From Alphaproteobacteria bacterium (GTDB lineage Bacteria > Pseudomonadota > Alphaproteobacteria > MPNO01), in assembly GCA_965117055.1 (NCBI GenBank), contig OZ220750.1:124902-188901 (forward strand): a stretch of DNA of 64,000 bases, read 5' to 3'. Below the pieces are notes generated by a model, which ran no database searches, was not told where the DNA came from, and saw only the letters and a program-made list of their open reading frames with translations. Position 1 is the first letter of the stretch. Each line of letters begins with the position of its first letter. This document shows positions 41,426 through 55,959 of this stretch, piece by piece. The translations under genes were made by a program, and so were the position numbers.

Positions 41426-43165
41426 ATGCTTACCAGACTCATCATCCGCAATTTCAAACGCTTCGGAGAGGTCGAGGTCGAGCTGGGCAATCCGGTCGTG
41501 TTCATCGGCCCCAACAATTCGGGGAAGACTTCGGCCATGCAGGCGCTTGCGCTGTGGGATATCGGCGTCAAGCGGTGGAACGAGAAGCGGGCCGGGAAGA
41601 GCGCACCGGAGAAGCGTCCCGGAGTGACGGTCAACCGCAGGGACCTGTTCGCCATCCCTCATCCGAGCGCCGCGCATTTGTGGCGCGACCTCCATGTGCG
41701 CGATGTCCAGCGCGTGGAAGGGAGCACGCGCACCGACAACGTGCGCATCGACCTGATCGTGGAAGGGGTCGACGAGGGCAAAGTCTGGACTTGCGGTCTC
41801 GAATTCGACTACGCCAACGAGGAATCGTTCTATTGCCGGCCGCTGCGGCTCGACGATGACAGGCCGCCGAAGCGGATGCCGATCCCCGCCGAAGCCGGAT
41901 CGCTGCGCATCGCGTTTCTGCCTCCCATGTCCGGTCTGGCGGCGACCGAGACGCGGCTCGATCAGGGCGCGGTGAACGTGAGGGTCGGCGAGGGTCGAAC
42001 GGCCGAAGTCCTCCGCAATCTGTGTTTCCGCATACTGACGGAGAACCCGGACAGGTGGGCCTCGCTGGTGACGCGTATCGAAGGCCTGTTCGGAGTGGAG
42101 CTCGAAGAGCCCCGCTATGTCGAAGAGCGGGGCGAGATCACCATGGGGTATCGGGAGCGCGGTTCGGCCCTAGACCTCTCATCGAGCGGGCGGGGATTGC
42201 AACAGACACTTCTGATCCTCGCCTACATGCACGCCAATCCGGGAGCGGTCATCCTGCTGGACGAACCGGACGCGCATCTCGAAATCCTCCGCCAGCGCCA
42301 GATCTACAGCCTCATCGTGGAGGTTGCGTCGGAAAGCGGCAACCAGATCGTCGCCGCGAGCCATTCCGAGGTGCTGCTCAACGAAGCCGCCGAAAAGGAC
42401 CTCGTGATCGCATTCGTCGGCGCGCCGCACCGGATCGGCGACGGGCAAAGCCAGGTGCGCAAGGCGCTCGCGGAGATCGGCTTCGATCAGTACTACCAGG
42501 CCGAGCAGACCGGCTGGGTACTGTATCTGGAAGGCTCGACCGATCTGGCGATATTGCAGGCTTTCGCGAAGAGGCTCGGCAAGGACAAGGCTGTCCGCGC
42601 GCTGGAACGACCCTTCGTCCGCTATGTCGGGAACAGCCCGCCGACGGCCGCCCACCATTTCCACGGGCTCCGGGAAGCGATCCCCGGCCTCAAGGGGGTG
42701 GCCCTTTTCGACCGTCTCGAACTGGGCGCGCCGGACGATCCTTTCCTCCGGCATCTGGTCTGGACCCGGCGGGAGATCGAGAACTATCTCTGTACCCCGG
42801 CGACACTGGAGGCCTATGCCCAGGCCTCCGCGATGGCGGCGGAGCCAAGGCCCCTGTTCGCCCGCCTCGAAGTCGACGACCGGCTGACGGCAATGAGCGA
42901 GGCGATCTCGGAGGTGAACCGGGCGCTCGAAACTCTCGACAAGGGTTCGCCTTGGGGCGACGACCTGAAGGTGAGCGACGAGTTCCTGACCCCGCTTTTC
43001 AAGGCCTATTTCGAGCGGATCGGCATCCCCAACCTGATGAGCAAGAAAAACTTCTACGAGCTCGCCGACTGCGTGCCGCATGAAGAAATCGATCCGGAGA
43101 TCGGCGAGAAGCTGGATGCGATCGCCGCGGTCGCGGAGAGCGCGAGGCCGGTGGGGGGGGAGTAG
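41426..43165 (+). CDS. ABC-type ATPase + TOPRIM-like domain (OLD-like ATP-dependent nuclease)
   Basis: IRNFKRF, Walker A GPNNSGKT, SSGRG, ILLDEPDAHL, ASHS; TOPRIM-like YLEGSTD...LFDR...REIENYL. Confidence 0.8.
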   Translation: MLTRLIIRNFKRFGEVEVELGNPVVFIGPNNSGKTSAMQALALWDIGVKRWNEKRAGKSAPEKRPGVTVNRRDLFAIPHPSAAHLWRDLHVRDVQRVEGSTRTDNVRIDLIVEGVDEGKVWTCGLEFDYANEESFYCRPLRLDDDRPPKRMPIPAEAGSLRIAFLPPMSGLAATETRLDQGAVNVRVGEGRTAEVLRNLCFRILTENPDRWASLVTRIEGLFGVELEEPRYVEERGEITMGYRERGSALDLSSSGRGLQQTLLILAYMHANPGAVILLDEPDAHLEILRQRQIYSLIVEVASESGNQIVAASHSEVLLNEAAEKDLVIAFVGAPHRIGDGQSQVRKALAEIGFDQYYQAEQTGWVLYLEGSTDLAILQAFAKRLGKDKAVRALERPFVRYVGNSPPTAAHHFHGLREAIPGLKGVALFDRLELGAPDDPFLRHLVWTRREIENYLCTPATLEAYAQASAMAAEPRPLFARLEVDDRLTAMSEAISEVNRALETLDKGSPWGDDLKVSDEFLTPLFKAYFERIGIPNLMSKKNFYELADCVPHEEIDPEIGEKLDAIAAVAESARPVGGE

Positions 43166-43422
43166 CGGTGGGACGCCACCATCGATCCTGCGGCGATTTC
43201 GCCGGGACCCACCTGAAACGATGGGGACGTGGTCGAGGACCGGTGTTTCCCGCGGTTCACGACACGTGCGCCGGGAGAGCCTTACGCGACCGCCTTAGCT
43301 TCACCAGGAACAGGTGTGGTCGCCTTGCTACCGATCCAAAGGGGCGATAATTTTGTAGCTTGGTGATATGGAGCCGTTTGCAAGGATGCCGAGAATCCTC
43401 GACGTATTTGACCACGAACCAA

Positions 43423-44880
43423 ATGGTTGAACAAGAACTCACGCAACAATTCTCGAAGGCGGAATCCGTTACGGAAATTTGGTCCGCCGCACGCCAAATA
43501 ATGGCGAAACGCTTGCTGCCTGCGCTCGTAGATGATCCACTTTTTTTAAGTGGTTTCGACCGGCTCGAAGAATTTGCGTCTGTCGATTCCGACATCGATA
43601 GGCTTCTCGCCATCGATCTATTGGTCAGACTGCCTGCCGCGTCGAAGAAACTGGCGAATAGAGCCGAAGCCCATCTTTCTTCAGCCCTTACGAGAGTATT
43701 GCCACCACTTTATGAATTACACGATGCGAGTCGGCTTCCCGATCAAGCGAAACCAGCCGACATTAGGGAAAACATTGCAATTGGTTTGAAGCTCGCGAGT
43801 GGAAAATGGGTGGAGGACTATTTATCGGATTCTATTGTCTACGAACAGCAATCTCAGCGTACACGTGAGGCGCTGATTACCGAACTGGTTCAACGAACGG
43901 AGAGTTTCAATGACTTGATTCGGAAGCTACAGGCCTCTTTTGAACGCAACACGCAGCTTGAAAATGACGAGAATCGGAAATATGCGGATTTGCATTCGAT
44001 CTGTCAGGCGCTAATTGTTATTCTGTCTCGAGACAGGCAAGCTATTAGTGTCGACATGCACTCTCCGTGTAATCTGGATCTTTTTGCCGCCTCTCTAGTG
44101 AAGCAATCGAGATGGAATATAATTCCGCCAAGGCTTGAAGAAGCTGCTACGGTCCTAGTCCGTTTGCTTGATGAGTTGCTGACGTTGAACGTGCAGCTAT
44201 TTGTAGAGTCCGATTCGTACCTCGTGGTAGAACGCATAAGTCGCTGGTGGAACCATCGCTCGTATCCTGAAGCGCTACGAACAGCCATGCGACCGATTAT
44301 GTCTAAACTAATCGGTGCCATTACGGTACGGGCGAGAATGGGCCAGAAATCTCAAGAGTTGGTAACTTGTCTCAGATGCATCGTTCAGGATGCTGATCGC
44401 GTAACAAAGATAAGAGAGAAGATCGCGGAGTCTACAAATATTTCACCAGAAGTGGACGATTGGTTGCGTGGAAAACAACGCACGACTGGGAGGCGCACAA
44501 ATTCCCTACGGCGTGCGTTGCGAAGCGGAAGACAAGAGAGTACAGATCAATTGATAGGTAGGCTTTTGATTTCTACCGAGTACTTAGACAGAACTTTGGA
44601 TGAAGGCGATGCACATGCAGCAAGAGCCGCGGTCGCTACCGTAGTAAACCGAGTGAAGAGTGCCGCGCTACGGCGGCAGCTCAAGATGGAAGGGATCGTT
44701 GGTGAGATTGTCGAATACGTCGCGGCTGCGCATGAAACAGTAGATCAGAGTACGCCGCTGGGCCACAAGGTAAGGGTTGAAAGCCCCATGGTAGTAAGAA
44801 TCCGCGAGGACGGCTCGCGCGATGTTGTGGTCAAGGCGGAAGTTGTAGAGCTAGAGCCAATCGAGAAGAACTACAGGTGA
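43423..44880 (+). CDS. large helical protein with C-terminal GrpE-like beta domain
   Basis: Long ORF in an AT-richer segment. C-terminus GIVGEIVEYVAAAHETV...KVRVESPMV...VVVKAEVV resembles the GrpE head domain. Confidence 0.65.
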   Translation: MVEQELTQQFSKAESVTEIWSAARQIMAKRLLPALVDDPLFLSGFDRLEEFASVDSDIDRLLAIDLLVRLPAASKKLANRAEAHLSSALTRVLPPLYELHDASRLPDQAKPADIRENIAIGLKLASGKWVEDYLSDSIVYEQQSQRTREALITELVQRTESFNDLIRKLQASFERNTQLENDENRKYADLHSICQALIVILSRDRQAISVDMHSPCNLDLFAASLVKQSRWNIIPPRLEEAATVLVRLLDELLTLNVQLFVESDSYLVVERISRWWNHRSYPEALRTAMRPIMSKLIGAITVRARMGQKSQELVTCLRCIVQDADRVTKIREKIAESTNISPEVDDWLRGKQRTTGRRTNSLRRALRSGRQESTDQLIGRLLISTEYLDRTLDEGDAHAARAAVATVVNRVKSAALRRQLKMEGIVGEIVEYVAAAHETVDQSTPLGHKVRVESPMVVRIREDGSRDVVVKAEVVELEPIEKNYR

Positions 44881-44884
44881 AACA

Positions 44885-46759
44885 ATGAATATGAATGTAC
44901 AGCTTGCGTGCGTGATCGTGTCAAGTTTATTAGCTCGTTTTCGTCGTGACGGTGAGGCGTTTGTTCTGCCTGAGGGCCGTATCAGTTCAATCGAAATGGA
45001 GGCCATTCGTCATTTGCTGACGGATGGCAAACCCGTTGTCCCAACAACCGAACATCCGGCGGACACGATAGAAAAAGGAGACCGTGCAAGAGGCCCAACA
45101 GAAGGCAATGAGGAAATAACAACCCAAAACAAAAAGGAGTATGCATCGCCTCCGGAAACCAATCTGCCGAATTTGCAAGCGGCCACGGCAATCGGGCCGG
45201 AGGAGTCGGACATGAGGCTTTGTATTGATTTTGGGACCGCAATGTCCAAGGCTTGGGCTGCCCTCGATTCGATAGAGAAAACCTTACCTCTAAACTTGGG
45301 AAAAGCTGCTGGCGGCAAGGACAGGTTTACGCTTCCATCCGCTATTTTTATTTCGGCTGGCGAAAGAGTATTTTTTGGCGATGAGGCTGAAGCTCAGCAC
45401 CGACAAGAGTTAGATGATGGAAGAAGAATTTTTGACAATATTAAACGTATATTGAGCGAAACCGAGGTTGGTCTCGACTTGAACGAGGTCCCCGTAGACA
45501 AGACAATCGATCCAACGGACGCCGGAATTACAAAGGGGGACTTGTTAGTATTATATCTCGGCTGGCTAACGGACAGTGCCCTTGCTGCGCTCAAACGGTC
45601 GATTGAAGAAGAGCACGGCAAGATTGACGAAGCGGAAGATACAATGCTGCGCTCCATCAGGCGCCGTTTCGCAATACCTTGTTTTGAGAATGCTGTCGAT
45701 GAGTTGAATAATGGTGAAACCAGATCGAAGTGGGCGAAGAAAGTCTTGTCCGAATCGATGATAAAGGCTCAGGTTGCGGCCGACAGCTTTCGTAGCGGGT
45801 GGGACCGAATTCGACTTCCTGACGTGTTGCCGACGCTTCGGGCGATTCGGGAAATCGATACCGAACGATTTGAGCATTTGTTGGCCGAGTGTCCGACAGT
45901 GAGGGAGCCCGTTGCAGCGGGTGCGTCTCGCTTTGGCGACGAAATGGAACAAGAAATAGGGCAATCTCGACGAATTTTGTTTGTTGTGGACGCAGGTGCT
46001 GGAACGACAGATTTTGCGGTGTTTCAAGCGTTTGTTGATTCTGAAATGGAGGACGGAGTAAGATATGCGTTAATAACACCGACCGTAAAAATGTGTCGAA
46101 TTGCTGGCAACGAAATCGATGCGATATTACGGCCTATATTTTTGACCACCGCAGGCATCAATCCTAATAATGGTGCGCCACGCAGCGAAGGCGATTTTTC
46201 GTTAATTAGTAGAGATTTGAGTTCCCAGATCAGAATGCTAAAGGAAATACTTTTTTTCGAAGGCACTGTGGAATACGCTCTACGACCGGGTATTCGAGCA
46301 AAATTGGACATTGAAACCGTGCTAAACGATGGTACCTATAAACAGCGTGGAGAAGAACTATTAACTATAAGGCAAAATATTATGCGGGGTGTATTTTCTG
46401 ACGATTATCTATCCAAGATAAAGGCGGCAAATTTACGTACAGGTAAACCCATGCCCGTACATGTATTACTGACCGGAGGCAGTGCTTCGGTACCAATAAT
46501 CGAACGATTGGCCAGCGGTTCTTTGGAATTGAATGACGCAAAATTTGAATTCCGAAGGGTCAGAGCGTTGCCAGAGTGGATCGAAAATTTGGAAAGGGAA
46601 TTGTTGGATCAAATTAGCGATCCCAACCCACAATGCGCGGTGGCCATTGGCGGCTCAGCGCCAGCGTTGCCATCGGAACTGTCAGACCTAAAGGAGGTCA
46701 TTACTCCGGGACCAGGCGGTCGTTGGGAAGTCCAGCGTTTTCAATCGCAAGGCATTTAG
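44885..46759 (+). CDS. Hsp70/actin-like ATPase lacking a substrate-binding domain
   Basis: CIDFGTAMSK, LPSAIF, VREPVAAG, VVDAGAGTTDF, AGNEID, VLLTGGSASVP, PQCAVAIGG in Hsp70 NBD order. Confidence 0.85.
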   Translation: MNMNVQLACVIVSSLLARFRRDGEAFVLPEGRISSIEMEAIRHLLTDGKPVVPTTEHPADTIEKGDRARGPTEGNEEITTQNKKEYASPPETNLPNLQAATAIGPEESDMRLCIDFGTAMSKAWAALDSIEKTLPLNLGKAAGGKDRFTLPSAIFISAGERVFFGDEAEAQHRQELDDGRRIFDNIKRILSETEVGLDLNEVPVDKTIDPTDAGITKGDLLVLYLGWLTDSALAALKRSIEEEHGKIDEAEDTMLRSIRRRFAIPCFENAVDELNNGETRSKWAKKVLSESMIKAQVAADSFRSGWDRIRLPDVLPTLRAIREIDTERFEHLLAECPTVREPVAAGASRFGDEMEQEIGQSRRILFVVDAGAGTTDFAVFQAFVDSEMEDGVRYALITPTVKMCRIAGNEIDAILRPIFLTTAGINPNNGAPRSEGDFSLISRDLSSQIRMLKEILFFEGTVEYALRPGIRAKLDIETVLNDGTYKQRGEELLTIRQNIMRGVFSDDYLSKIKAANLRTGKPMPVHVLLTGGSASVPIIERLASGSLELNDAKFEFRRVRALPEWIENLERELLDQISDPNPQCAVAIGGSAPALPSELSDLKEVITPGPGGRWEVQRFQSQGI

Positions 46760-46901
46760 GGAAACGCCTGGGAGATTATATGGACTATCATGTACTCAGT
46801 GTTCCCATAATTTCCGGTCGCGCGCCAGCGCGGCCTGAACTGTCAGGTGATTGCCGTCTCACTACAGACCAGCCGTAGACGGCGAGTGAATATATTGGCT
46901 C

Positions 46902-47228
46902 TCACGACGCGATACCCAAGAACAACGCCAGCGCCCGATTGACCCGGCTCATGTCGGCTCGGCCGAGCCGGCCGAACATGGCGCCGAGTTTTTCTGTGCG
47001 GGTGGACATGGTCTTGTCGACCATCACGAAGGACCGCTCGCGCAAGCCGTTATCCGGAGAAGGATCGACCGGCAGGCGGAAGAGCGGCGCATCGGCCGCG
47101 GTCGAGGTTACCGGCAGGACGGTGACCGTCGCGTGGCCGGAAAACAGATCGGACTGGACGACGAGGGCCGGGCGGGGTTTGCCGAAATCGCCGGGCAGAG
47201 CGACGGTGACGAGGTCGCCGCGCCTCAC
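46902..47228 (-). CDS. PemK/MazF family toxin
   Basis: RRGDLVTVALPGDFGKPRPALVVQSD...VLPVTS. Confidence 0.92.
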   Translation of the reverse strand: MRRGDLVTVALPGDFGKPRPALVVQSDLFSGHATVTVLPVTSTAADAPLFRLPVDPSPDNGLRERSFVMVDKTMSTRTEKLGAMFGRLGRADMSRVNRALALFLGIAS

Positions 47229-47446
47229 TCCCAGTTCCCGAGGTCTTCTAGCGCGGCGTCGACGAAACCGGTCAGCTCTGGATCGGCGCGGTCGGATGCC
47301 GCCGCGAGGGCGGTCTGGCGCCTGCACTCCTCGGCGAAGCCCGGGGCCCTCGTATTGGGAACCCAGATCTGCACCGGGCGAAGCCCCCTGGCCCGCAGCG
47401 AGTCGCGGTGCTTCCTCACACGGCGGGCGGCCGAACGATCGGACAT
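47225..47446 (-). CDS. MazE-like antitoxin (DUF3018)
   Basis: RVRKHRDSLRARGLRPVQIWVPNTRAPGFAEECRRQ; GTGA-coupled to the toxin. Confidence 0.88.
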   Translation of the reverse strand: MSDRSAARRVRKHRDSLRARGLRPVQIWVPNTRAPGFAEECRRQTALAAASDRADPELTGFVDAALEDLGNWE

Positions 47447-47470
47447 GGCAAATCTCCCATGAACCGCTCT

Positions 47471-47482
47471 GTTACATGTAAC
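47471..47482. promoter_or_regulatory. putative TA autoregulatory operator
   Basis: Perfect palindrome GTTACATGTAAC about 25 bp upstream of the antitoxin start. Confidence 0.6.
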
Positions 47483-47515
47483 GTGTTCGACGGTCGGCGT
47501 CAAGTCCACCGCGCC

Positions 47516-49644: not shown

Positions 49645-50187
49645 TTACCCGACGGCGCCGGTTTCGCGTCCCCCGGGGACAGAGGAAGCCGATCGGCCCG
49701 GCTCCAACACGAACCTCGCCCGTTCTCGCCGCAGCATTTCGTAGGGGGTGACGCAGCGCAGGCCGAGTGCAATGCAGGCATTCGGGATCTTGATCTTGCG
49801 GAGGGTGTCCGCCGGGACTTCGTGCGTGACGACGACGCAATCGTGGGCCAGCGCGTGGGCGACCAGCCAGTAATCCGCAACCTGCAAGAAAGTCGCGGCC
49901 GCCGCAGGTTCGTAGCCGGCGCCGACTGCCCAGTCGCTCACGGTCGGAAGTGCAGCCGCCACCGCGGCGTCCGGCCTCAAGAAGAAATTGTCGCCCCGTT
50001 CTTCCACCCACGCCGCCAGATCGTCGCCGCCCGCGCGCAGCTCGTCGGCGACCTTTTCGATGCTCGCCACCGACCCCGCTCCGTTCCGCTCGACCAGCCA
50101 ATCCCAGAACCCGGGGCAGATGTCGAAACCGTAGTGGAGGTTCTTGGCCTGGATGAAGACGTTGGCGTCGAGCAGGTAGCCGGTCAT
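49645..50187 (-). CDS. PIN-like DUF4411 family protein
   Basis: YLLDANVFIQAKN, FWDWL, ADYWLVAHA, VVTHE, KIPNAC. Confidence 0.85.
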   Translation of the reverse strand: MTGYLLDANVFIQAKNLHYGFDICPGFWDWLVERNGAGSVASIEKVADELRAGGDDLAAWVEERGDNFFLRPDAAVAAALPTVSDWAVGAGYEPAAAATFLQVADYWLVAHALAHDCVVVTHEVPADTLRKIKIPNACIALGLRCVTPYEMLRRERARFVLEPGRSASSVPGGRETGAVG

Positions 50188-51338
50188 CCCATCAGACCGG
50201 CTTCGCGGCCGAGATTGTTGAAGGTCTCGGTCTTCGACACGCCGAGCATCCGGAAGGCGTCCCGATAGAGGGTCTGCCCTTCGAGCGTGCTGCCGACGAC
50301 GGCGCGGGCGAACCTGGGGCTCACACGGGAGAGCGTCGTCCGGTAGAAATTGCCCCCTCCACGGCCGCGTTGCGCGAGGGCGTGCAGGCGCGTGGTCTCC
50401 TGCTCCCACGCAGTATCGAAACGCTCCCGGTCGAGCCAGGCCGCGTCCAGCAAGCGCCGAAGCACGACGAGGGTGCTGACTTTGAACGACCGGGCCAACC
50501 GGGAGAGCGCGTCCGGGAGCGCTTCGTCCGCTTGCAGTGCGGCCCGGAACTTGTCGAGAGGCACCAGAAACTCCGCCGCCACGGCATTGCACCAGACCTC
50601 TTCCCGCCGGAAACCCGGCCCGGCCGCGGCCTCACTGTTCGACAGGGCGGACGCGCCCAGCCACAGATGCGCGAGCTCGTGGGCCAGCGTAAACATCTGC
50701 GCCGCCCTCGTGTCTGCCCCGTTGACGAAGACCAACGGCGCCAGGGGGTCGGAGAGCGCGAAGCCGCGAAACTCGGCCGGGTCGAGCCGGCGGCGGGTGT
50801 TGCTCATCACCACCCCGCTGACCATGACGAGCACGCCCGCGTCGTCAGCGCGGTCGATGAACAGCCGCAGGGCGTCGCTCCAGGTCGGGCAGTCCCGGCG
50901 GGCGGCGGGATCGAAGCCCAACGTGTCCTGCATGTGCGCGGCGGCGGTTTCCGGCGGTGTCCCGACGGTGATGCTGCCCACGAACCCCAGTTCCGGCCGC
51001 CGTTCGCCCCGGAGAAAATCTCGATACCAGGCCTGCCGTTCCTGGCAGGCGTAGATCGTGTCGAGAAGATTGGGGCTCGGGCGCGCCACGGGCTGCCCGG
51101 CGACGGTGCGATAGTCCGGGATGGGGACACCTTCCTCCGGCGGTTCCGCGAGGAACAGGTATCCCACGGGGAGATGAACGGCGCGGGCGAACGCCTCTGC
51201 CTGCTTCAGGGTCGGTCGGCCCTCGCCCGCCTCCCATTGCGGCAGCTTCTTGAACTTCGCTGCGAGTTCGGCCTGCCCGCGTCCCGCACGTTCGCGCGCC
51301 CAGCGTAGAAGTCCTGGATCGATGGAGACGCGTGTCAT
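50184..51338 (-). CDS. HTH + ImmA/IrrE metallopeptidase
   Basis: LLRWARERAG...WEAG...PTLKQ (HTH), FRGFAL, FTLAHELAHLW (HExxH), EVWCNAVAAEFL. Confidence 0.88.
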   Translation of the reverse strand: MTRVSIDPGLLRWARERAGRGQAELAAKFKKLPQWEAGEGRPTLKQAEAFARAVHLPVGYLFLAEPPEEGVPIPDYRTVAGQPVARPSPNLLDTIYACQERQAWYRDFLRGERRPELGFVGSITVGTPPETAAAHMQDTLGFDPAARRDCPTWSDALRLFIDRADDAGVLVMVSGVVMSNTRRRLDPAEFRGFALSDPLAPLVFVNGADTRAAQMFTLAHELAHLWLGASALSNSEAAAGPGFRREEVWCNAVAAEFLVPLDKFRAALQADEALPDALSRLARSFKVSTLVVLRRLLDAAWLDRERFDTAWEQETTRLHALAQRGRGGGNFYRTTLSRVSPRFARAVVGSTLEGQTLYRDAFRMLGVSKTETFNNLGREAGLMG

Positions 51339-54391: not shown

Positions 54392-54677
54392 GGGCGGGAT
54401 CCTCTCTCGGTGTAATCGGGTACGGGGGGAATCTAGGCGGCGGGCCGGCGGTGTCAATGCGGACGCGATGGCAAGACGGGTGGGTGGGACAGCAGGGGAC
54501 GATCGACCCTTATGGAGGCCATGCGCGACGACGACAACTTCCTTTTACGATTGCAAGGGGCGGATCCCTCATCTACCGTGGATTTCAGTGCGATGGCAGG
54601 GAAACCGTTCGGGTACGGGAACCGGAACCGATCATGCACATGGGCAGAACCGTCGACTGTAAGGCGCAATACGCACT

Positions 54678-54968
54678 ATGACGAATGTAGTGCTTGGTCA
54701 CCATCCCGGGTATTTGGCTCTCGCGAACAGGCTGGATTCCGTTGTAACGTTCAATGTGCCGGCTGCGATCTGGAACGGAATGAGTTCCGCCCATCGGTGG
54801 CGGTTAAACCGCAGCTTTCTGCAAAGCGCGATCGACAGAAACGACAAGTTCGTATTTTCCCATCATCCTTTGTTCGCCCGTAGGGCCAGCTCGTACTTCA
54901 GGGAGATCAGATTCTTGCGAAGCCAGGGCGTCCGCGTCCTGCCGTCCCAAGTAGCGTTCGTTCCGTAA
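54678..54968 (+). CDS. hypothetical protein resembling a polymorphic-toxin C-terminal domain
   Basis: VLGHHPGY...F.VP..IW...W..N..FL..AIDR.D.F.....S.Y.REI.FL...G pattern, recalled from RHS-type tips. Confidence 0.55.
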   Translation: MTNVVLGHHPGYLALANRLDSVVTFNVPAAIWNGMSSAHRWRLNRSFLQSAIDRNDKFVFSHHPLFARRASSYFREIRFLRSQGVRVLPSQVAFVP

Positions 54969-54983
54969 TCCCGAGACTTTGTC

Positions 54984-55526
54984 ATGAGCAATGAATTCGC
55001 GAGGGAGGTGTTGGAACAGCTCTCAGGCGTAGGGGAGGGCAAGCCCGGGCTGGTCCACGAAACTTACGACGACGAAAACTTCGGCAACGCAACGGCGACG
55101 ATCGAAATCGACGGTGTTTTTTTGCATTTCGTCGATGACCGCGGCGTTCGGACTATCGAATTCGAACTCGATCTGCCAATTCCCGATTCTCCGCGAGACC
55201 GTCCATGGCCCGAACCGTATCCGCCGTATTTCGAGCGATGGCCGTTGCGTGACGGTCGGGGGAAACCGGTATGCACGCTGGAGGCGCTGGCGGTCGCGCT
55301 GGGCTGGATAGGCATGGAAAGACTTGTCGAGCACTATGTGCTTGACGGCGACAATTACGACTTCGACGCTTCCCCTCGGCCGTTCTATGAATTCGACAAG
55401 GCCATGAGGCTGCTTCGAGATCGCTGGCCGCAATTCGTTCAGGCACGCAAGAACTCGGGGACGCAGTTGAAGGCGATGGAGGTCGAACTCAAGCTGCAGG
55501 CAAAATTTCTCGAACAGCTAACGTGA
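54984..55526 (+). CDS. hypothetical protein, putative immunity protein
   Basis: Acidic; YDDENFGN...LHFVDDRG pattern; 15 bp downstream of the previous ORF. Confidence 0.55.
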   Translation: MSNEFAREVLEQLSGVGEGKPGLVHETYDDENFGNATATIEIDGVFLHFVDDRGVRTIEFELDLPIPDSPRDRPWPEPYPPYFERWPLRDGRGKPVCTLEALAVALGWIGMERLVEHYVLDGDNYDFDASPRPFYEFDKAMRLLRDRWPQFVQARKNSGTQLKAMEVELKLQAKFLEQLT

Positions 55527-55608
55527 AACCCTTCGCCACGGCCACGGTACGACTGCCGGGCAGCGTCCCGATAGATTGGGGATGCCTGCGAATAGGCCGG
55601 CGGCGCCT

Positions 55609-55959
55609 TCAGGCGGCCCGGAGACGCGTCATCTCCGCTTCGAATTCCGCCTCCAGCCGCGCCGCCTCGTCGTCGGGCAGCCAGCATGTCAGGTTGGGGA
55701 ACGCCATCCTGACGAACGATGCCCGCCCGTATTCCCAGTGCCGGGCCGATATCTCGCCGCGCAGTTCCTTGAGGATGCTCTCGATGCGGCGGCGCACCCG
55801 CTCCGGATCGGGCCGGTAGGCCTCCGCCGGCGCGGCGCCGAACAGGTCGCCCTGCCCGTGCTCGTTCAGCGTGTCGTGTCGACGCGTTGCCACCCAGGAC
55901 CCCATATTTGGTAGCAAGAGCCGGCGCTCAGCATACATATCGATGCCGATTCGCGCCAA
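55609..55959 (-). CDS. hypothetical protein
   Basis: Plausible coding part QGDLFG...PDPERVRRRI...FPNLTCWLPDDEA...FEAEMTRL; true start probably near 55869. Confidence 0.55.
   Translation of the reverse strand: MARIGIDMYAERRLLLPNMGSWVATRRHDTLNEHGQGDLFGAAPAEAYRPDPERVRRRIESILKELRGEISARHWEYGRASFVRMAFPNLTCWLPDDEAARLEAEFEAEMTRLRAA

Follow-up and report, generated by a model that had tools for sequence, protein, structure and literature searches.

What would an Hsp70-type ATPase that lacks a substrate-binding domain (SBD) do on a small block of foreign DNA, beside a partner gene of no Pfam family? The question is raised by two adjacent genes, hereafter open reading frame (ORF) 1 and ORF2, on contig OZ220750.1 of an alphaproteobacterium of the MPNO01 lineage (assembly GCA_965117055.1), within a stretch of 64,000 nucleotides (positions 124,902 to 188,901 of the contig) which we call the window and whose own numbering is used throughout. 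An earlier note, made from the letters of this DNA, had proposed a chaperone-derived ATP/ADP switch repurposed for conflict. The reading that we favour, at a rough probability of 55%, is that this operon and its relatives, which belong to the candidate family PDC-M61, are most likely an anti-phage or anti-mobile-element module in which the tail of ORF1 would act as an exchange domain on the Hsp70-type ATPase encoded by ORF2.

The answer begins with ORF2, which profile comparisons show to be a divergent Hsp70-type nucleotide-binding domain (NBD) with its catalytic motifs kept and with neither a substrate-binding nor a lid domain. All seven motifs picked out in the earlier note are present in the translation and in the Hsp70 order (CIDFGT at residues 113-118, LPS at 150-152, EPVAAG at 341-346, DAGAGTTD at 369-376, AGNEID at 407-412, LTGGS at 529-533 and AVAIGG at 585-590), and 33-34 residues follow the last of them before the C-terminus, in agreement with the 35 or so first counted. 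The expected match to the Hsp70 NBD was also recovered. A search of the PDB with the ORF2 family profile, which like the column conservation given below derives from 42 relatives, listed 59 chains at an expect value (E) of 10 or less, 51 of them Hsp70s, including the top 50; BiP was the best match (3.6e-5) and DnaK reached 2.4e-4, while FtsA, actin and Arp8 stood at the bottom of the list. In line with this, hhalign paired residues 111-617 of the ORF2 family with residues 4-400 of 29 DnaK sequences (P 0.002), with the motifs in register: CIDFGT falls on the phosphate-1 motif, K187 on the catalytic lysine, EPVAAG on NEPTAAA, DAGAGTTD on DLGGGTFD and LTGGS on the adenosine motif. We take K187 and E341 to be the counterparts of K70 and E171 in DnaK numbering. 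The last ~30 residues align with the interdomain linker (..DLKEVITP.. with ..DVLLLDVTP..), and there ORF2 ends; no C-terminal substrate-binding beta-sandwich and no lid was found, the DnaK alignment stopping at residue 400 (linker and first strand), so that the absence of a peptide-binding and lid domain, as originally proposed, stands.

Residues D115, G117, T118, K187, E341, D369, G371-G373, T374 and D376, and likewise G408, D412 and T530-G532, are invariant in 42 of 42 relatives; because of this conservation of the catalytic residues, ORF2 is likely an active ATPase. The additional ~110 residues that had been noticed at the N-terminus are real, since the first ATPase motif starts only at residue 113. 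The first ~45 of them are conserved (M3, R18, P29, S34, E37 and A40 are near-invariant) and are followed by a variable, charged, proline-rich linker, the whole extension having no counterpart in DnaK. The relationship to Hsp70 is a remote one, because the window protein matches no Pfam family, HSP70 (PF00012) included, and PF00012 is matched by one of the 42 relatives (1.6e-5); two of the 42 weakly match MreB_Mbl. In addition, single-sequence searches of the PDB with ORF1 and ORF2 returned chance matches only, and no longer, fused forms of ORF2 were found, which is weak evidence. A weak local match links residues 341-415 to the YegD-type family PRK11678 of NCBIfam (E 9.8e-5; 21 bits against a cut-off of 331 bits). 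Like YegD-type proteins, ORF2 is an NBD-only Hsp70 relative; unlike them, it is extended by 110 residues at the N-terminus, has insertions in lobe I and comes with an obligate partner gene.

That partner is ORF1. The two ORFs are co-oriented on the plus strand with four bases between the ORF1 stop and the ORF2 ATG (44881-44884), the spacing first reported. The open frame of ORF1 runs from 43360 to 44880 (+) and would give 506 residues from a TTG; we place the start at the ATG at 43423 (485 residues) because this agrees with the N-termini of its homologues. Neither is a chance ORF, given 204 relatives of ORF2 at E<=1e-3 and 481 cluster representatives found with the profile of ORF1, which has 12 close relatives. 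We examined 80 loci that encode an ORF2 relative, mostly from Alpha-, Beta- and Gammaproteobacteria by record annotation. An ORF1 relative lies beside it in 73 of them with a first profile and in 75 with a broader one, and the conservation of the pair elsewhere, on which the original proposal depended, is thereby confirmed. Seventy-one of these 75 pairs have the ORF1 relative followed by the ORF2 relative on one strand, three are convergent and one is a truncated remnant; in 64 of 70 loci the first possible start of the second gene lies no more than 60 nt to either side of the stop of the first (median distance 18). The five loci without an ORF1 relative are L021, where the contig ends, L068, where an unscored ORF of 441 residues occupies the expected place, and L071, L076 and L077 (L numbers denote loci, and G numbers genomes). 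ORF1 is thus the obligate genomic partner of ORF2, and the two form one conserved two-gene unit. Between distant members, ORF1 is 18-25% identical and ORF2 25-34%.

Some copies of the unit are altered. In two Pseudoxanthomonas loci (L041:5839-8004 and L078:5521-7683) the ORF1 relative shares one frame with an upstream DUF4391 (2.4e-54), the joint frame coming after the gene of an HKD-Snf2 helicase and representing a fusion or else two neighbouring genes with no in-frame stop between them. Decayed copies also occur: L056:7371-8582 holds a single ORF of 403 residues that matches the start of ORF1 and part of ORF2, and elsewhere (among L064, L066, L003 and L030) one or the other gene is split into two or three ORFs.

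By full-length profile matches, the pair is a new member of PDC-M61, an already catalogued candidate family. ORF1 matches PADLOC model PDC-M61A (PDLC04727) with E 5.6e-27, residues 4-472 on model positions 12-484 of 487, and three further PDC-M61A models; ORF2 matches PDC-M61B (PDLC04731) with E 1.3e-86 over residues 3-598. The earlier note had not recognised a named system here, and in this it was mistaken. It had also held that a match to a described system would undo its proposal; this applies in part, the match found being full-length and the family matched just a catalogued, untested candidate. As far as the sections of the preprint available to us tell, PDC-M61 is a phage defence candidate of PADLOC-DB v2, one of 145 such candidates predicted by guilt-by-embedding (Payne et al., bioRxiv 10.1101/2024.01.29.577857), and the portions of its main text at hand contain none of the terms 'Hsp70', 'chaperone', 'actin' or 'PDC-M'. 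Only one other paper mentioning PDC-M61 was found; for Pseudomonas aeruginosa isolates it reports a negative statistical association between the system and the number of prophages. Within the literature searched, with subscription journals outside the search, we found neither a domain-level (Hsp70/GrpE) hypothesis for PDC-M61 nor a published description of a stand-alone Hsp70/GrpE-type defence pair.

The genomic surroundings of the family point towards defence. Both genes (first profile) together with at least 5 kb on each side were available in 54 of the 80 loci, and 50 were retained after leaving out two near-duplicates (L019 and L058) and two broken copies (L056 and L066). Up to three ORFs per side were taken, ORFs below 90 residues being ignored, and the resulting 295 ORFs were clustered. 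Annotated defence genes lie within three ORFs of the pair in at least 23 of the 50 loci, so that the placement in defence islands anticipated by the earlier note was recovered. HmaB is directly upstream in nine loci and HmaA is present in three; HmaC adjoins the pair in six, immediately downstream in five. All three subunits of a type I restriction-modification (R-M) system occur in four loci, and a fifth has just the methyltransferase; BrxC with PglX is found in three, HKD-Snf2 in two, an NsnB-like ABC ATPase in three, TIR and NYN in five each and GmrSD in two. A typical gene order, seen at L006, is NYN, HmaB, GmrSD, ORF1 relative, ORF2 relative, HmaC. When PADLOC was run on 80 of the larger neighbours in the remaining 27 loci, it matched many defence helicase families (TmtA, ZorD, DrmD, NERD+UvrD and others); this tally cannot be counted per locus and is kept out of the 23 of 50. 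Our survey independently reproduces the guilt-by-embedding argument behind the PDC list, and the occurrence of the pair's family inside BREX, type I R-M and Hma systems is a likeness to PDC-M61, with no family-level difference.

Such embedding also allows another explanation, namely that the pair is an accessory or assembly module, a chaperone-like helper of Hma, BREX and type I R-M, rather than an autonomous immune system: in many loci HmaB and HmaC, or BrxC and PglX, flank it, or it comes just past HsdS. We regard this as improbable. The host systems are of at least four unrelated kinds, and self-contained candidates (GmrSD, NYN, TIR) stand alongside them; the present window and 27 of the 50 loci have no such cluster-annotated system within three ORFs, and the low-GC block described next holds the two genes alone.

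This block is an operon of two genes that was acquired horizontally. Across the 1-kb windows from 43001 to 47000 the guanine-plus-cytosine (GC) fraction is 0.534, 0.500, 0.507 and 0.486, compared with 0.588-0.761 in the remaining 60 windows, which agrees with the AT-rich composition first counted by hand; the block measures ~3.7 kb at ~50% GC in a host of ~68%. ORF2 is present in two of 41 related genomes, the source genome and G100, and in none of the 11 other genomes of the same genus. In the same-genus genome G005, 164 bp replace window positions 43179-47511, between an upstream ATPase gene that is 89.5% identical (window 41843-43178) and downstream genes that are 92% identical (from 47512); in G006, G002 and G007 the MazEF part (from ~46906) is present and the two ORFs are absent, G006 sharing 46906-47449. 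From the gap in G005 and these genomes with MazEF but not the pair, we conclude that the two genes were inserted at ~43179-46905. The foreign cassette of the original proposal is therefore upheld by its low GC, its distribution in two of 41 genomes and its absence from the same site in G005. The low-GC block holds no third ORF and no J-domain protein, the latter as first noted. A repeat search found no direct repeats flanking the cassette, no integrase was found with the block and no tRNA within the 64-kb window, and a promoter and terminator scan of the cassette did no better than shuffles.

Two further observations concern the site and the second carrier. Within the genus, the stretch that separates the ABC ATPase gene from the short-chain dehydrogenase and thiolase genes lying downstream of it is variable: it spans ~600 bp in G009, contains MazEF only in several genomes, and has other content in G001 and G006. 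G100 carries two diverged copies of the unit (L132 and L133; L002 and L031 probably come from this genome too), with ORF2 relatives 44% and 34% identical.

A foreign operon with an ASKHA-fold ATPase could have a role on a mobile element other than defence, for example in actin-like segregation, in addiction or as a specialised helper of protein folding. ParM-type segregation proteins are among the ASKHA-fold ATPases, two of the 42 ORF2 relatives show the weak MreB_Mbl matches mentioned above, and toxin-antitoxin genes adjoin the cassette. Nevertheless, a tblastn search of 72,556 plasmid and 50,697 phage records gave no hit, which makes plasmid segregation unlikely, and the top profile matches are Hsp70s, neither ParM nor MreB. 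MazEF has host-like GC and occurs without the cassette in relatives, and housekeeping dnaK and grpE are found elsewhere in the genome. On balance, a role outside defence seems very improbable to us, even more so than that of an accessory to other systems.

We now turn to ORF1, which has no family match in Pfam or NCBIfam and is apparently a helical protein with a small C-terminal domain. Its last ~60 residues are conserved as G..GE.VEYsP..HE...V.V.rP.V.R...DG...V.KA.V, and the pattern G.VGE.V.Y....HE, likened in the earlier note to the GrpE beta-domain, is present in the translation. In hhalign comparisons, the tail profile scored 19.0 against 50 GrpE sequences (P 0.015), a second tail profile drawn from 72 loci scored 19.2 (P 0.019), and the addition of six divergent GrpE paralogues (56 GrpE sequences) gave 21.0 (P 0.0088). 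Each of the three runs placed G..VEYsP..HE of ORF1 on G..FDPnlHqA of GrpE with the preceding helix aligned too, and the match reaches, with low confidence, into one helix of the GrpE bundle. An Atlas language-model search with residues 400-485, among named clusters only, had GrpE at the head of the named families with a score of 0.80, below the lead threshold, nine of the ten named matches sharing family or clan with the best named one; the same search with the whole of ORF1 returned just its own unnamed family. In this regard, the likeness to GrpE claimed for the tail fares in two ways: the in-register hhalign matches and the Atlas result speak for it, whereas searches based on Pfam, the PDB and a GrpE model speak against it. 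We hold a GrpE-like tail to be plausible, at about even odds, and unproven.

An alternative that we consider possible, although clearly less probable than our favoured reading, keeps the family and its defence role and takes the ORF1 tail to be an unrelated small beta-domain with no exchange activity; ORF1 would then be an adaptor or regulator, and the Hsp70/actin-fold ATPase might oligomerise or clamp a target. The sequence-to-profile tests for GrpE, all negative, speak for this alternative, and profile-profile P values of just ~0.01-0.02 and an Atlas score under the lead threshold suit it as well. It accounts less easily for a weak match that three profile variants all place on one GrpE signature, with its elements (helix, G..FDP..H, beta strands) in unchanged order, or for the outcome of column permutation, in which none of 400 trials (100, 100 and 200) attained the real score (maxima 19.0, just under the unrounded real 19.04, 18.3 and 18.8). 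Moreover, ORF2 belongs to the one superfamily on which GrpE acts.

Returning to the favoured reading, in which the tail is an exchange domain of a defence operon, a number of results count against it. No match of ORF1 to Pfam GrpE (PF01025) was obtained at E<=0.1, this family is not among the 25 listed for 103 members of the ORF1 family at E<=1, and a PF01025 scan of the genome found the housekeeping grpE alone. PDB searches with full-length and C-terminal ORF1 profiles listed no GrpE. On 175 ORF1-family members, a GrpE hidden Markov model (HMM) built from 50 sequences reached a maximum of 2.8 bits, compared with 5.9 for reversed sequences, and its best stretches lay in tail-to-tail register in only 10 of 124 cases; the figure of 1 of 126 for reversed sequences, however, makes this register count a weak point in favour of GrpE. 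The hhalign probability for the tail and GrpE is 2-5%, far under what is accepted in database searches, and the six divergent GrpE paralogues taken alone gave no match (P 0.15). As to function, neither ORF1 nor ORF2 has a recognisable effector domain, the output step being purely inferred; no experiment on the PDC-M61 family is on record, and the authors themselves call the PDC systems added to PADLOC untested (bioRxiv 10.1101/2024.01.29.577857). In the neighbour survey only cluster representatives were scanned, other members being assigned by BLAST clustering, and in this window no larger defence system encloses the pair.

Two additional comparisons were given no weight. A match between the full-length ORF1 profile and 20 GrpE sequences was helical and judged spurious, and a complex prediction for full-length ORF1 with ORF2 residues 105-615 gave no answer (ipSAE 0.01 and 0.01) and was used neither for nor against binding. 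Separately, six genomes of the phylum encode, as a second copy, a divergent GrpE (Pfam E ~1e-17; G022:C84, G046:C32, G050:C89, G054:C200, G058:C133 and G066:C83; L170-L175), which in G022, G046, G050, G054 and G058 adjoins an Hsp70 paralogue matching Pfam positions ~100-589 (or 1-505), no such paralogue being listed beside it in G066; these genes are a separate, paralogous Hsp70/GrpE pair.

Under the favoured reading, ORF1 and ORF2 would form a complex in which the long, fast-diverging N-terminal region of ORF1 replaces the missing SBD in trans and recognises a phage or host protein. Its C-terminal domain of ~60 residues would dock on ORF2 in the manner of the GrpE beta-domain and control the exchange of ADP for ATP, such that target binding by ORF1 would change the ATPase state of ORF2. 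Since neither protein shows an enzymatic effector domain, the output may be envisaged as sequestration or remodelling of a protein that the phage needs or of a host protein, or as signalling to a host factor, and not as nucleic acid cleavage; alternatively, the module could interfere with the DnaK/DnaJ/GrpE system on which many phages depend. A more ambitious form of this proposal, which we put forward only tentatively, is that in PDC-M61 the Hsp70 cycle itself may have been made into a minimal, self-contained immune module, an SBD-less Hsp70 gated by a true GrpE-derived domain that is fused to a helical sensor evolving fast. In that case a switch between ATP and ADP states of the chaperone type would report the recognition of a phage, and the module might guard the host DnaK/DnaJ/GrpE machinery or compete with it.

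How does such a pair compare with systems already known? Hsp70 and GrpE are housekeeping proteins, and ORF2 resembles DnaK in aligning with its whole NBD and linker with the catalytic motifs kept, as the ORF1 tail weakly resembles the signature of the GrpE beta-domain. The pair differs from DnaK-GrpE in having no SBD, lid or J-protein, in the 485 residues of ORF1 with an unrelated N-terminal part of 420, in the failure of ORF1 to match Pfam GrpE, and in a patchy, foreign distribution. A housekeeping chaperone pair was considered and rejected: the genome has its real dnaK and grpE at other places, and the pair is patchy. Predicted conflict systems centred on GAP1-N2 GTPases recruit Hsp70, GrpE and an SBD-less Hsp70 copy, and in the excerpts available they are described as multi-gene, with GTPases and FNIII/DnaJ or TPR proteins, and mainly from actinobacteria and firmicutes (Kaur et al. 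2020, eLife, PMC7159879). As far as those excerpts go, our pair is unlike them in consisting of two genes with no GTPase and in being mostly proteobacterial; no TRAFAC GTPase with FNIII/DnaJ or TPR genes was found in the cassette, its flanks or the annotated neighbour clusters. Hsp70-like domains are also known from CoCoNuT CnuD and from McrB fusions in predicted restriction or defence systems (Bell et al. 2024, eLife, PMC11090510). According to the passages of that paper at our disposal, CnuD has both NBD and SBD, is joined to HEAT repeats, has McrBC-type GTPase partners and shows degenerate Walker-like motifs. On that description ORF2 differs in having no SBD and invariant motifs, and no McrBC-type neighbour was found here or in the annotated neighbour clusters.

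Features of the two-gene unit and of its immediate neighbours, in coordinates of the window
Feature	Position	Strand	Basis
Low-GC inserted block carrying ORF1 and ORF2	43179..46905		GC 0.49-0.53; absent in G005
ORF1, 485 aa, PDC-M61A family, no Pfam family	43423..44880	+	PADLOC PDC-M61A match
ORF1 C-terminal domain, ~62 aa (residues 424-485), possible GrpE-like beta-domain	44692..44877	+	hhalign, weak
ORF2, 624 aa, PDC-M61B family, predicted SBD-less Hsp70-type ATPase	44885..46759	+	PADLOC, PDB profile, hhalign
ORF2 N-terminal extension, residues 1-110	44885..45214	+	column conservation; no DnaK counterpart
ORF2 predicted nucleotide-binding domain, residues 111-595, with catalytic motifs	45215..46669	+	invariant residues, hhalign against DnaK
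ORF2 C-terminal tail, ~29 aa, aligned with the Hsp70 interdomain linker	46670..46756	+	hhalign against DnaK
ABC-type ATPase (AAA_15/AAA_21), OLD/Gabija/PARIS class, outside the unit	41426..43165	+	Pfam, PADLOC
MazF/PemK toxin and MazE-like antitoxin, outside the unit	46902..47509	-	Pfam

The genes on either side of the block had been described as an OLD-like nuclease and a MazEF-type toxin-antitoxin pair. The second description is confirmed by Pfam (PemK_toxin 3.1e-21; MazE-like 6.3e-27). The first is correct in part: the upstream gene encodes an ABC ATPase of the OLD/Gabija/PARIS class (AAA_21 1.8e-17 and AAA_15 5.6e-17 in Pfam; NsnB 3.1e-22, AriA 7.3e-20 and also GajA in PADLOC), but no nuclease is evident in it, because its C-terminal 230 residues match no Pfam family, nuclease and TOPRIM families included. 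The ATPase gene has host-like GC, occurs without the pair in G005, G009 and G001, and shows 81-89% DNA identity in same-genus genomes that have no cassette; ORFs weakly similar to it (E 5.5e-8 to 9e-4) are found in just three of the 80 related loci, and the MazEF of this window has a match in none of them. Both were considered as parts of the unit and rejected, since they occur without the pair in relatives and are rare or absent at related loci.

Elsewhere in the window, a second candidate conflict pair lies ~3 kb downstream on the minus strand (49645-51338). One of its genes encodes a protein with a helix-turn-helix and a Peptidase_M78 domain (ImmA/IrrE-type; PADLOC capP and RmrA at ~2.5e-14) and overlaps the gene of a DUF4411 (PIN-like) protein (5.6e-53). 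Farther on, a milder dip in GC (0.62-0.63) at 54500-55950 contains three small ORFs of 123, 180 and 112 residues that match no Pfam family.

PDC-M61 was already known to PADLOC; what our analysis adds is a hypothesis at the level of domains and an independent confirmation of the linkage of the two genes and of their defence context. Most of the mechanistic interest lies in the GrpE claim, where homology, as judged from sequence, is unproven; should it fail, the pair would stay a well-supported candidate defence pair. The natural insertion, with presence and absence within one genus, is usable for testing. If the favoured reading is true, the ATPase cycle of a chaperone would have been turned into an immune switch that works with neither a nuclease nor an NADase nor a membrane effector, and a module gated by a GrpE-derived domain would be the first stand-alone anti-phage system with a core made of an Hsp70 and its exchange factor.

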